Counted from the stretch's first letter, positions 1 to 10,245 are shown. The stretch: DNA of 64,000 nucleotides from Escherichia coli (GCF_024502345.1 NZ_JALDNN010000002.1), one strand, 5' to 3'. Made by a program: numbers and translations. Notes: generated from the letters alone by a model not told the origin.

Positions 1-1011
1 ATGACGAGCGAAAATAACAGCTTACTTCTGAACCTTCAGGAAGTTGATAAGACAACCGGCGAAGTTGTTAAGCTGGATGTCAACAGCACCAGTACCGTGC
101 AGCCAGTAGCGCTCATGAGACTCGGTCTCTTCGTCCCAACTCTGAAATCAACAGGGAAGAGCAAGGCGAACCGGAAAAACGTTACAGACGCGACTGAGGA
201 GCTTGTACAGCTGTCTATTGCCAAAAGCGAAGGGTACACTGACGTTAAGATCACCGGTTCGCGTCTTGATATGGACACGGATTTTAAAGTCTGGCTGGGG
301 ATAATTCGTTCCATGTCGGAGTATGGGGTAAAAAGTGACACCCTGGAACTGTCGTTCGTCGAATTCGTTAAGATGTGCGGATTTAACTCCCGTCGTTCAA
401 ACAAAAAAATGCGCGATCGCATCAGTAATTCTCTGTTTAAACTTGCCTCGGTTACGCTGAAGTTCCAGAGCGAGACCAAAGGATGGACCACCCATCTGGT
501 GCAGTCAGCCTATTATGACATCACCGAGGATATCGTTGAGATAAAGGCTGAACCTAAGCTGTTTGAGCTTTACCACATGGACAGAAGGGTACTGCTGCGG
601 CTGAAAGCCATTGACGCCCTGCAGCGCAAGGAATCAGCCCAGGCGCTTTATACCTACATCGAAAGTCTTCCCCAGAATCCTGCACCTATTTCCATGAAAC
701 GGATGCGTGACCGGCTAAATCTCACCTCAAATGTCTATACGCAGAACCACACGGTGCGTAAGGCGATGGAGCAGCTGCGGGATATTGGTTATCTGGATTA
801 CACCGAGTTTAAACGTGGCCGAGCCACCTATTTCAGCGTGCATTATCGCAACCCCAAACTCATCAGTGGTCCTGTGAAGGTTCCGCGCAAAGAGGAAGAA
901 GAGAAGGCGCCAGAGCAAAATTATGACGAAGTCATTAAGGCGCTGAAGGCTGCTGGCATCGATCCTCTTAAACTGGCTGAAGCCCTCTCAGCGATGAAGC
1001 CAGAAAATTGA
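1..1011 (+). CDS. RepFIB-type plasmid replication initiation protein (may be 5'-partial at window edge)
   Basis: 336-aa ORF recognised as an IncFIB-type Rep initiator; immediately followed by iteron-like TTGACTG repeats. Confidence 0.8.
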
Positions 1012-1260
1012 CTGCGATATGCATATCATGACTGCCGTATGCCGCTAAGGACATTCCATTGACTGTGATATGCATCACGCATACCGCAGTCAATGTTTAT
1101 TCTCTATCATCTCTGCCCGGATCGAACAATATTGACTGTAATATGTGATTTGGGGTCGTGATACGCAGATATTGACTACGGCATGCGGGTTAAATGAGGG
1201 TAATCCCTGGTCTGTTAACCATTCCATGGGTGATAACATGCCACAGTCAATTTTTCAGTA
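1012..1260. repeat. Iteron-like repeats downstream of RepFIB rep gene (ATTGACTG-N-ATATGCAT-type motifs, direct and inverted)
   Basis: Repeated TTGACTG(C/T)(G/A)ATATG motifs seen at least 5 times in 250 bp. Confidence 0.6.
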
Positions 1261-1409
1261 AAGCTCTATACCCCTTATGAAAATCTCAATCGGGTGCTGA
1301 GACGGTCATGTTACCTGACGGTATCCGTTCCCCTGTGTACTGCAGGTTTAGCCCGGAAGGATGAGACTGCAGCTGTCTGTATAACCCGGCGCCAGCTTCA
1401 CACTGCTAA

Positions 1410-2605
1410 GGAAGGTGCGAACAAGTTCCTGATATGAGATCATCATATTCATCCGGAGCGCATCCCAGAGGGACATCATGAGCCATCAACTCACCTTCGC
1501 CGACAGTGAATTCAGCAGTAAGCGCCGTCAGACCAGAAAAGAGATTTTCTTGTCCCGCATGGAGCAGATTCTGCCATGGCAAAACATGGTGGAAGTCATC
1601 GAGCCGTTTTAACCCAAGGCTGGTAATGGCCGGCGACCTTATCCGCTGGAAACCATGCTACGCATTCACTGCATGCAGCATTGGTACAACCTGAGCGATG
1701 GCGCGATGGAAGATGCTCTGTACGAAATCGCCTCCATGCGCCTGTTTGCCCGGTTATCCCTGGATAGCGCCTTGCCGGACCGCACCACCATCATGAATTT
1801 CCGCCACCTGCTGGAGCAGCATCAACTGGCCCGCCAATTGTTCAAGACCATCAATCGCTGGCTGGCCGAAGCAGGCGTCATGATGACTCGAGGCACCTTG
1901 GTCGATGCCACCATCATTGAGGCACCCAGCTCGACCAAGAACAAAGAGCAGCAACGCGATCCGGAGATGCATCAGACCAAGAAAGGCAATCAGTGGCACT
2001 TTGGCATGAAGGCCCACATTGGTGTCGATGCCAAGAGTGGCCTGACCCACAGCCTGGTCACCACCGCGGCCAACGAGCATGACCTCAATCAGCCGGGTAA
2101 TCTGCTTCATGGAGAGGAGCAATTTGTCTCAGCCGATGCCGGCTACCAAGGAGCGCCACAGCGCGAGGAGCTGGCCGAGGTGGATGTGGACTGGCTGATC
2201 GCCGAGCGTCCCGGCAGGGTAAAAACCTTGAAGCAGCATCCGCGCAAGAACAAAACGGCCATCAACATCGAATACATGAAAGCCAGCATCCGTGCCAGGG
2301 TGGAGCACCCGTTTCGCATCATCAAGCGGCAGTTCGGCTTCGTGAAAGCCAGATACAAGGGGCTGCTGAAAAACGATAACCAACTGGCGATGTTATTCAC
2401 CCTGGCCAACCTGTTTCGGGTGGACCAAATGATACGTCAGTGGGAGAGATCTCAGTAAAAACCGGAAATAACGCCAGAAATGGTGGAAAAAATAGCCTAA
2501 ATAGGCTGATTCGATGTGTTTGCGGGAAAAAAATCGGCCCAGATCCGCGAAATTTTAATCAGCGAGTCAGCTTGGGAAGAAATGACCTGCTTATTCGCAC
2601 CTTCC
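1410..2605 (+). mobile_element. IS5 copy A (about 1196 bp)
   Basis: Terminal GGAAGGTGCGAA...TTCGCACCTTCC inverted repeats; InsH-like transposase ORF; flanks CTAA / TTAG are not an identical direct repeat. Confidence 0.9.
1478..2458 (+). pseudogene. IS5 transposase InsH with in-frame TAA replacing a Tyr codon (..IEPF*PKAGNG..)
   Basis: ORF track splits into 1506..1694 and 1655..2458; compared with intact copy at 19749..20729 ([11 protein letters not shown]). Confidence 0.8.
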
Positions 2606-2924
2606 TTAGATTATTTTCTTCGTGCAATTCATTGAACCAGTCTTGAATTGCCTGCACTAGTTCGGGGTGCTTAACTGCATTGACCGTTCTGAATAAGGAT
2701 GAAATGGCAATACTGACATCATCAAACCCTCTTATTACGGAACGATTACGTGCCGTGAGAAATCGGTTAAAGTCTGGCGTGCCTGGGGTAATAGTTACTG
2801 TAGCCATGCCGTAATGTTCATTTTTACTTTGCACGACCCTACGGCTATTATCGGACGCATGAGGGGAGCGGGTATTTACGTCAGGTACCTTATGCTCGCT
2901 TTCATTCATTGTTACATCGGTCAT
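2606..2924 (-). pseudogene. Hypothetical protein, 3' end replaced by IS5 copy A sequence
   Basis: 121-aa ORF 2559..2924 whose last 15 codons lie inside the IS5 terminus; overlaps upstream gene by 4 bp (operon). Confidence 0.5.
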
Positions 2925-3406
2925 TGTGCCACCTCTGATTTTGAGTATTGACGGACTTTTCGTCCCAGTTCGATATATGCAGCATGGTAGAACTCAAGTA
3001 ATTCTCTGTAGGGTTCCAGTAATCCCTCCGTTTTTTCAATCATTTCATATTCCCAGCTGGCATGATTAACAAAGCAGCTTTTCGTATATTTTCCACTTTT
3101 CATCGGTGAAATCCGTTTCGACATGTGACTAGGTGGCCTGTTTTTATACGGGCTAAACTGATGCCAGGTAATGGTGACTTTCCTGGCATTACCAATTAGC
3201 TCAACTTTTGGTGCATATGAACCCAGATACTCCTTCTTTAGAGTTTTGCTATCCCTGGGTAAATTCCTCTCAATGTGATTCCGTTCTTTCCACTCGATCC
3301 AATAATTGGTGATCAGTTCTTCAGCCTCTTCTCGAAGAACATCGATTTGTGAGCGCAATAAAGTACGTGAAATCTCTAATGACTTTAATAGCTTCGATTT
3401 AGACAT
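2921..3406 (-). CDS. Hypothetical protein (161 aa), first gene of a two-gene operon
   Basis: ORF with AT-rich promoter-like region upstream; ATGA overlap with the downstream ORF; no recognisable family. Confidence 0.5.
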   Translation of the reverse strand: MSKSKLLKSLEISRTLLRSQIDVLREEAEELITNYWIEWKERNHIERNLPRDSKTLKKEYLGSYAPKVELIGNARKVTITWHQFSPYKNRPPSHMSKRISPMKSGKYTKSCFVNHASWEYEMIEKTEGLLEPYRELLEFYHAAYIELGRKVRQYSKSEVAQ

Positions 3407-8661: not shown

Positions 8662-8808
8662 AGATAGCGCTGATGTCCGGCAGTACTTTTACCGTTACGC
8701 ACCACGCCTTCAGTAGCTGAGCAGGAGGGACAAGTGATGGAGATGGAAGCCACTGGAGCACCTCAAAACCACCATCATACACTAAATCAGCAAGTTGGTA
8801 GCATTACC
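8662..8808 (-). mobile_element. IS1 left-end fragment (about 147 bp)
   Basis: Matches IS1 IRL and first about 150 bp; truncated where the IS110-family element ends. Confidence 0.8.
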
Positions 8809-8984
8809 CAGAACTGGACAGAATAGGCTGTATGTCTAACTTCTAGCCACAGATATAATCGAGCCAGCAGTGCTCGCCGCAGCCGAGCGACAGGGCGAAG
8901 CCCCGAGTGAGCGAGGAAGCACCATGGAACAGTACTCATAAATTCTGCATACGCTCAATGCCTGCAAAATCACCTCCCATAGGG

Positions 8985-9286
8985 GTTATCCACTTATCCA
9001 CGGGGATATTTTTATAAGATCTTTTTAAATAGTTGTTAGATTTTTATTTTTAGAATGCCCACAGGCCTTTATCCATGCGGGTTCCAGAGAGGGATCTGTG
9101 ACAAAACGCCCTTTCAGTGTGACAAATCACCCTCAAATAGCCGCCATTTCTGTGACAAGTTGCCCTTAACCCTGTGACAAATTGCCCTCAGGAAGCGTTG
9201 CTTTTCACAAAGTTATCCATCCCTGTTGACTCTGTTTTATGAAGTGTGACAATCTTAAAATCTGTCACACTTCACATGGACCTGTC
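8985..9286 (+). promoter_or_regulatory. RepFIA ori2-like origin: tandem DnaA boxes (TTATCCAC x2), AT-rich stretch, four TGTGACAA-type iterons, palindromic repE operator
   Basis: Direct reading: GGGGTTATCCACTTATCCAC, then iterons CTGTGACAAA(N)CCCT x4, then TGTGACAATCTTAAAATCTGTCACAC. Confidence 0.85.
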
Positions 9287-10042
9287 ATGGCGGAAATAGC
9301 GGTTATAAACCATAAAAAACGTAAAAATAGCCCGCGGATTGTCCAGTCTAACGAGCTGACTGAGGCGGCATATAGTCTCTCCAGGGATCAAAAGCGTATG
9401 CTGTATCTGTTCGTTGACCAGATCAGAAAATCCGACGGCTCCCTGCAGGAACATGACGGCATCTGCGAAATTCACGTTGCTAAATACGCTGAAACATTCG
9501 GGCTGACCTCCGCTGAAGCCAGTAAGGATATACGACAGGCTTTAAAAGGTTTTGCGGGTAAGGAAGTGGTTTTCTATCGCCCTGAAGAGGATGCCGGCGA
9601 TGAAAAAGGGTATGAATCCTTTCCCTGGTTTATTAAACGTGCGCACAGCCCATCCAGAGGGCTTTACAGCGTACATATCAACCCATATCTGATTCCCTTC
9701 TTCATCGGGTTACAGAACCGGTTTACGCAGTTCCGGCTCAGTGAAACAAAAGAGATTACCAATCCGTACGCCATGCGTTTATACGAATCTCTGTGCCAGT
9801 ACCGTAAACCTGATGGCTCAGGTGTCGTGTCCCTGAAAATCGACTGGATCATGGAACGCTACCAGCTACCTCAAAGTTACCAGCGTATGCCGGACTTTCG
9901 CCGCCGTTTCCTGCAGGCAAGTGTTGACGAGATCAACAGCCGGACACCAATGCGCCTTTCTTACATCGAGAAAAAGAAAGGCCGCCAGACGACGCATATC
10001 GTATTTTCCTTCCGTGATATAACCTCCATGACGATTGAATAG
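9287..10042 (+). CDS. repE: RepE replication initiator (RepFIA, F-plasmid type)
   Basis: 251-aa protein [22 protein letters not shown]... near-identical to F plasmid RepE as recalled. Confidence 0.92.
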
Positions 10043-10245
10043 TTGAGGGCTATCTGTCACAGATTTAAGGGTGGTTCGTCACATTTGATCTGGAAAGTTG
10101 AGGGTGATTTGTCACAGTTTTGCTGTTCCCTCCCTGGCATCCTGCGCTTACTCATAGTTTTTTTGGCTGTAACCGGTAGTGGAGCCAGAATTGAGGGCAA
10201 TTTGTCACCCTATCCTGAGGGTAGTTTGTCACACTAGATTTTCTC
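10043..10245 (+). repeat. incC-like iterons downstream of repE
   Basis: Repeated TTGAGGG(N)ATTTGTCACA motifs. Confidence 0.8.

Follow-up and report, generated by a model that had tools for sequence, protein, structure and literature searches.

A probable multi-replicon IncFIB(K)-like/IncFIA(HI1) replication region joined by insertion sequences in an Escherichia coli plasmid

The RepFIA replicon of the F plasmid (ori2-repE-incC) is preceded by ccdAB-resD and followed directly by sopA-sopB. A FIA-like replicon is also carried by R27, a plasmid isolated in 1961 (PMC11628540), and its functional E protein, the binding of this protein to incC and the role of incC in stability have been published (PMC4853401). 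R27 has an IncHI1 backbone, and partition in IncHI1 plasmids is carried out by separate Par1 and Par2 modules (PMC11628540). Plasmids typed IncFIA(HI1)-IncFIB(K), and plasmids typed only IncFIA(HI1), are found among mcr-10 carriers (PMC12462442), and the titles and typing tables of further papers list the same replicon types. Here we analysed a single strand of 64 kb from Escherichia coli (GCF_024502345.1, NZ_JALDNN010000002.1), referred to below as the window, the region under study being its first ~10 kb. The layout was established from open reading frame (ORF) calls, Pfam and NCBIfam family scans and direct reading of the sequence. The first 10 kb very probably belongs to a multi-replicon IncFIB(K)-like/IncFIA(HI1) plasmid and forms its replication region, in which the replicons are joined by insertion sequence (IS) elements. 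A preliminary description made from the sequence had proposed two replicons within ~10 kb, and both were found, each of the iteron type (repB at 1-1011 and ori2-repE-incC at ~8822-10255; Table 1). All of the parts are new instances of well-described elements, and the combination of IncFIA(HI1) with IncFIB(K) is common and already described.

On sequence grounds, the RepFIA module is of the R27 type, which corresponds to the PlasmidFinder type IncFIA(HI1). The subtype was assigned by direct comparison, the threshold being a nucleotide identity of 95% or more to the reference from R27 and not to that from F. The module was 98.8% identical to R27 (NC_002305.1) over 1300 bp (8822-10121), compared to 86.5% for F. 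The amino acid identity of RepE was 98.8% to the R27 protein and 95.2% to the F protein, and the solved F RepE structures in the PDB were matched with E values of 1e-161 to 5e-163. Within ori2, two DnaA boxes (8986-9001), the iterons (9098-9188) and an operator palindrome (9244-9272) were identified, and in a three-way alignment with R27 and F these boxes and the palindrome were conserved, as was the AT-rich stretch. The iteron core GTGACN6CCCT was matched nine times in the 64 kb, where 0.33 matches are expected, with four matches on the plus strand in ori2 and five on the minus strand in incC. The ori2 iterons lie at -190, -169, -136 and -114 from the repE ATG, the same offsets as in R27 and within 1 bp of those in F. 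Altogether the offsets matched F within 1 bp for eight iterons, the search pattern having missed the fifth incC repeat of F. The architecture is therefore that of F RepFIA (DnaA boxes, four plus five iterons and the operator palindrome), whereas the surroundings are different, with IS1 sequences on both sides in place of ccdAB-resD and sopA-sopB.

The window module also differs from that of R27 in some respects. R27 has eight incC-type repeats, whereas five are present in the window and in F. The extra repeats of R27, seen when its locus L004 (~4160-4350) is compared with window 10036-10145, are a tandem duplication of a 55-bp two-iteron unit, which makes the incC copy number, as read from these arrays, variable within the IncFIA(HI1) type. 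Upstream of the module, the IS1 of R27 is in direct orientation and ~100 bp further out, whereas the window has an inverted 147-bp IS1 remnant ending 13 bp before the homology to R27 starts. The two modules also sit in different host backbones, IncHI1 for R27 and FIB(K)-like for the plasmid studied here.

Neither R27 nor the window has sopAB after incC. The sopA gene of F begins 587 bp past the stop codon of repE, and sopA-sopB-sopC come right after incC. In the window, a truncated IS1 starts 20 bp past the fifth incC iteron and holds the place that sopA has in F, in agreement with the preliminary description. The latter had further attributed the replacement of sopAB to a neighbouring defence-island region, and this part did not hold, since the replacement is not local. 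The incC-IS1 junction (…GTAGTTTGTCACACTAGATTTTCYCCCTCTTCCCG followed by GGTAATGGTGCC…) coincides in position with that of R27, where two of the 100 nucleotides shown are substituted, and the IS1 fragment abutting R27 incC has been noted before (PMC4853401). In PLSDB, at least 574 plasmids from several genera cover at least 80% of 8662-10460, a segment that includes both IS1 junctions. Because the junction position is shared with a plasmid isolated in 1961 and the IS1-flanked module recurs in so many records, the loss of sopAB is, on this comparison, an ancestral trait of this replicon type and unrelated to the neighbouring defence genes. It is a lineage trait rather than a local event, and it matters little beyond annotation. 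What follows incC varies with the lineage, with sopAB in the F type, a small ParA plus ParM in a Klebsiella FIA type (96% identical) and IS1 in the R27 type, which at the level of these alignments shows that this position is modular among FIA lineages.

Partition genes were also sought in the rest of the window. No SopA or SopB homologue was detected in the 64 kb (tblastn, best E = 0.11), Pfam scans found no ParA, ParB or ParM domain among the 36 larger ORFs of the window, and a tandem-repeat search of the window returned no 43-bp repeat array. The ORF at 4137-4964 was considered as a hidden ParA and rejected, as Pfam and NCBIfam gave no match to it and its translation showed no Walker A motif.

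Both modules are predicted to be iteron-controlled theta replicons. The individual steps proposed for the FIA module are taken from F RepFIA biology. By analogy, RepE monomers would bind the four ori2 iterons beside the two DnaA boxes and the AT-rich region and thereby open the origin, RepE dimers would repress repE at the operator palindrome, and the five incC iterons would limit copy number by titration or handcuffing. In the FIB module, the Rep3-family RepB would act on flanking iterons, of which the downstream set alone is visible. The FIA module corresponds to the IS1-bounded, stripped form known from R27, in which ccdAB and resD upstream and the partition genes downstream were lost long ago. 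Since partition works in cis for the entire plasmid, such a module can do without its own partition genes.

Conceivably, the FIA module does not work as an origin here and would instead be carried along as an incompatibility or copy-control and stability determinant, with RepE and incC modulating maintenance and RepFIB performing replication. The FIA-like replicon of R27 is dispensable for replication and yet deletion of incC sharply destabilises R27 (PMC4853401), which fits this idea, as does the absence of any flanking maintenance genes around the module. However, the minimal F ori2 replicon is intact in all its cis and trans elements, and a full-length RepE with 95% identity to the F protein is encoded. 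Plasmids of 58-90 kb typed only IncFIA(HI1) have also been reported (PMC12462442), which argues for autonomous function. We therefore regard the non-origin alternative as rather unlikely, and prefer to view RepFIA as a probably functional replicon. More tentatively, and with low confidence, we propose that the ~1.45-kb ori2-repE-incC unit between the IS1 ends may be a portable replicon cassette that is moved by IS1 events among unrelated backbones (IncHI1 in R27, FIB(K)-type, FII(Yp)-type and others) and retained as an auxiliary origin or a stability/incompatibility determinant not requiring its own partition genes. Such a cassette is compatible with the incC-IS1 junction being shared while the upstream IS1 boundaries differ, and with the spread over several genera, although these observations do not demonstrate transposition.

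The RepFIB replicon is only partly visible, with the repB ATG at window position 1. RepB was 99.4% identical to a protein annotated as "RepB family plasmid replication initiator", and its relatives carry the same PGAP annotation. The downstream iteron ATTGACTRYRRYATG had six matches in the 64 kb, all within the repB-adjacent cluster, against a chance expectation of 0.00. Upstream RepFIB iterons are visible in a relative (L002, 7650-8056), the corresponding side falling outside the window here. The replicon belongs to the same family as RepFIB of F/P307 (IncFIB AP001918), which has a Rep3 initiator flanked by iterons, and the relatives also share the adjacent tyrosine recombinase. However, RepB was just 51.2% identical to the RepB of F RepFIB at the amino acid level, and the nucleotide similarity was confined to 320 bp at 73%, which is well short of close identity. 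In contrast, positions 1-1404 were 100% identical at the nucleotide level to many E. coli plasmids in PLSDB. This 1404-bp region was matched by 2893 PLSDB records, of which 2278 are from Klebsiella. The relatives are typed as IncFIB by MOB-suite, and related plasmids carry the label IncFIB(K) in the literature (PMC12462442). From the Klebsiella bias, the MOB-suite type and the literature label, we infer that this replicon is IncFIB(K)-like and not of the F type in the strict sense. The preliminary description had spoken of two F-type replicons. A RepFIB and a RepFIA replicon are indeed present, but the first is only distantly related to that of F and the second is of the R27 type, so that replicon typing should read IncFIA(HI1) plus IncFIB(K)-like, not F-type.

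The closest described plasmids for the FIB side are IncFIB(K)-type plasmids from Klebsiella, Enterobacter and E. coli in which an F-like sopABC is linked to the replicon, such as pKFu015_2, pHH107-3 and pSYM5/6. They are 100% identical to the window over 1-1404 and have the same IS5 insertion at 1410. Among ten contigs encoding an identical RepB, nine have sopA-sopB divergently oriented upstream of repB, starting ~750 bp upstream where no IS or intron is inserted. The pair in these nine contigs consists of a 387-388-amino acid (aa) CbiA/AAA_31 protein and a 323-aa SopB_HTH protein. Five of five checked E. coli plasmids, rotated to begin at repB and sharing the identical repB-IS5 junction, end in sopA-sopB. 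The closest Enterobacter relative likewise has sopA-sopB upstream of repB, bringing the total to six of six complete relatives read, five of them with the identical repB-IS5 junction. The linked SopA and SopB were 97.7% and 88.2% identical to the F proteins, respectively. In pHH107-3, the one relative checked for this feature, 13.4 copies of a 43-bp repeat lie downstream of sopB, a period that F sopC also has. Together, these results suggest that an F-like sopA-sopB-sopC probably lies just before window position 1 on the circular molecule, ~0.75 kb from repB without counting any inserted IS. As the likeliest partition provider, divergent and just upstream of the FIB repB, it would serve the whole plasmid, whose stability probably depends on it.

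This bears on two earlier statements. That partition of the FIA replicon must rely on functions elsewhere is supported, though trivially, as the 64 kb contains no partition gene. A sopAB immediately outside the window had been named as the find that would speak against this view. One half of it probably applies, since in the relatives the genes lie there, divergent and upstream of repB, and the other half does not, since they are not in the F position after incC.

Alternatively, sopABC may be missing from the plasmid altogether, its maintenance depending on a different partition system, on multimer resolution combined with toxin-antitoxin killing, or on copy number. In line with this, the window has zero partition genes in 64 kb, and the tyrosine recombinase that is normally downstream of repB is absent from it, which indicates that the backbone has suffered deletions. 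We nevertheless consider a plasmid devoid of sopABC improbable, given the presence of sopA-sopB upstream of repB in nearly all of the contigs and in every complete relative described above. A sopABC next to repB thus remains the favoured source of partition.

Among the E. coli relatives, the stretch between sopA and repB (10120-12051 in L005, 4909-10587 in L007, 3735-7936 in L032, 5853-7784 in L033 and 3559-7887 in L034) has a different insertion in each plasmid group (an IS3-family element, IS421 or a group II intron). From these sequences, the region appears to be an insertion hotspot beside the FIB origin.

How the two replicons came close was addressed by comparing IS flanks and gene order with the relatives. 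The first IS5 has CTAA as its left and TTAG as its right flank and no direct target duplication, consistent with a recombinant copy. In pKFu015_2, the repB-adjacent IS5 is a simple insertion in which the element lies between two CTAA copies, followed by ATGCGATTAGG… and the normal FIB backbone. The sequence after this IS5 agrees with the uninterrupted site of pCX21 and leads into the tyrosine recombinase gene. The window IS5 at 1410 differs from the pKFu015_2 copy by one base, and the FIB backbone continuation expected after it was found nowhere in the 64 kb. Instead, the block running from mobI to RepFIA follows directly after the IS5, whereas in pKFu015_2-type plasmids this block is distant and inverted. 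Several E. coli relatives have the 10.3-kb block (1405-11670) inverted and tens of kb from repB, and the block has therefore often been rearranged. In pCX21, the mobI block is in the same orientation as here, ~12 kb downstream of repB, and is preceded by a co-oriented IS5 remnant. These comparisons bear out the earlier proposal that IS elements brought the replicons close, the CTAA/TTAG flanks of the window standing against the CTAA-duplicated simple insertion of pKFu015_2.

A crossover between two directly oriented IS5 copies would delete the FIB backbone that separates repB from the mobI block, a loss of ~12 kb including the tyrosine recombinase gene, toxin-antitoxin genes and an OLD-family ATPase/UvrD-like gene pair. 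As judged from flanks and synteny, such a deletion is the simplest and most likely account and is favoured over inversion. The crossover point inside the IS5 is uninformative, as the parental copies differ only in their first ~85 bp. A simple inversion relative to pKFu015_2, where the block is inverted and ~35 kb away, was rejected, as the similarity ends at 11670, no reciprocal junction is present in the window and the mobI block of pCX21 is co-oriented. The second IS5 (flanks CTGT and TTAG) also lacks a target duplication and the complete IS1 has 9-bp flanks that differ, placing this IS1 at a recombinant junction. With three complete IS copies (two IS5 and one IS1) that have no matching target duplication, the interval is an IS-mediated mosaic. 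The closeness of the replicons is a by-product of IS-mediated recombination and not a designed arrangement.

Several points weigh against parts of this interpretation. The IncFIB(K) label is inferred. The placement of sopABC is drawn from relatives, because the window begins at the repB ATG, and one of the ten contigs with an identical RepB (L017) has no sopA, which also favours the view that the plasmid lacks sopABC. The deletion model is based on flanks and synteny, with no further record showing the arrangement, and an inversion with its reciprocal junction outside the window is a less likely alternative. The presence of CTAAATGCGATTAGG adjoining an IS5 outside the window would indicate inversion, and its absence deletion. 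Exact repB-IS5-mobI continuity was found in no record of PLSDB or E. coli RefSeq, and the repB/IS5 junction had no exact match among GTDB representatives. Although this missing continuity and the five ~1.2-kb IS5/ISKpn26 copies of 96-98% identity in the window could suggest an assembly mis-join across one of these copies, the true arrangement being that of the relatives with the FIA block distant or inverted, this is very improbable, because IS5-IS5 recombination is common as a real event, each flank is separately attested in other complete plasmids and the 64 kb nowhere contains the backbone sequence that would be displaced by a mis-join.

Table 1. Features of the replication region and of the mcr-10-type cassette, in window coordinates.
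Feature	Position	Strand	Basis
repB, Rep3-family initiator, 336 aa	1-1011	+	Pfam Rep3_N 5.7e-11, Rep3_C 1.5e-4
Iterons downstream of repB, ATTGACTRYRRYATG in four direct and two inverted copies	1007-1251	.	Whole-window pattern search
IS5, first copy	1410-2605	+	NCBIfam IS5 transposase, 317 bits
Non-IS segment, backbone or cargo, 2.45 kb	2606-5059	.	ORF and family scans, direct reading
Hypothetical ORF, 121 aa	2559-2924	-	
mobI homologue	2921-3406	-	Pfam MobI 6.2e-22
Four tandem ~44-bp palindromic repeats	3674-3837		Tandem-repeat search, direct reading
ORF without family match	4137-4964	+	Pfam/NCBIfam scans
Complete IS1, 768 bp	5060-5827	-	NCBIfam IS1 transposase matches on both ORFs
Orphan fragment, 173 bp, between IS1 and second IS5	5828-6000	.	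Direct reading
IS5, second copy, inverted relative to first	6001-7195	-	98% complementary over 1018 nucleotides
IS110-family element, transposase 7346-8368	~7196-8661	+	NCBIfam IS110-family transposase, 347 bits
IS1 remnant, 147 bp, left inverted-repeat end towards RepFIA	8662-8808	-	95% complementary to start of IS1 at 10256
ori2 of RepFIA(HI1): tandem DnaA boxes, AT-rich region, four iterons, repE promoter/operator palindrome	8822-9286	+	Direct reading, R27/F alignment
repE initiator, 251 aa	9287-10042	+	NCBIfam PRK13742 RepE equivalog, 532.8 bits (cutoff 342)
incC, five iterons opposite in orientation to ori2 set	10046-10232	-	Pattern search
Truncated IS1, 5'-retaining (insA and start of insB)	10256-10783	+	Pfam InsA and IS1 transposase domains
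XerC-type tyrosine recombinase	50655-51731		
EptA-family phosphoethanolamine transferase	52050-53717		Downstream of XerC-type recombinase

The interval between the replicons had been described as containing only IS elements and one short cargo segment. The IS elements and the 2.45-kb mobI segment are there, together with two short orphan stretches. The IS families named (IS5, IS1 and IS110-family) are likewise all present, but that inventory was incomplete, as it should list two IS5 copies, a complete IS1, the 173-bp orphan and the 147-bp IS1 remnant. The 173-bp orphan had no family or repeat match. The IS110-family element abuts and truncates an IS1 at its right end, 147 bp from the end of that IS1. 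An Rfam scan of 1-12000 gave no family at gathering score.

Each of the four ~44-bp units in the mobI segment is an imperfect palindrome of the form GGYCACTTTT-N6-8-AAGTGACCCTATG. They lie in the intergenic region (3407-4136) between the divergent mobI and the ORF at 4137-4964. In SXT and IncA/C elements, oriT is located upstream of mobI. By analogy, the four palindromes could be an oriT or an operator array.

IS5/ISKpn26 copies are present across the window at 1410-2605, 6001-7195, 19598-20800, 32965-34167 and 61087-62306. A matching 4-bp target duplication (TTAG) was seen for one of the five, 32965-34167. The other four have mismatched flanks, and IS5-mediated rearrangement has therefore occurred repeatedly across the plasmid. 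A second IS110-family element at 38760-40162 has 78% nucleotide identity to 7255-8661, the similarity stopping exactly at 8661, and a third IS110-family transposase gene is located at 46481-47557.

Beyond the replication region, the window probably carries an mcr-10-type colistin-resistance cassette, as suggested by the EptA-family gene next to the XerC-type recombinase gene and by the annotation MCR-10.1 in related plasmids at the region of 50655-53717. The replication region shows IS5 and IS1 recombination trimming and reshuffling backbones that bear mcr-10-type genes, which complicates plasmid typing and assembly.

Following the truncated IS1, the region 11746-17147 looks like a decayed defence island. 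It encodes a TnsE C-terminal fragment (11746-12054), a WYL-domain protein (12218-13126), a GmrSD-type restriction enzyme (13141-14871) and an HsdM N-terminal fragment (14883-15614) that seems to be truncated by an IS30-like transposase gene (15996-17147). A BCCT transporter gene and a DUF2254 gene are located at 34136-37495. A chaperone-usher fimbrial operon on the minus strand (40620-46159) encodes a Fimbrial-domain subunit, a PapD-like chaperone, an usher, an MrkD-like adhesin and a further Fimbrial-domain protein. A Dps-like protein is encoded near the window end, and other contigs encoding it show unrelated contexts bounded by IS26.

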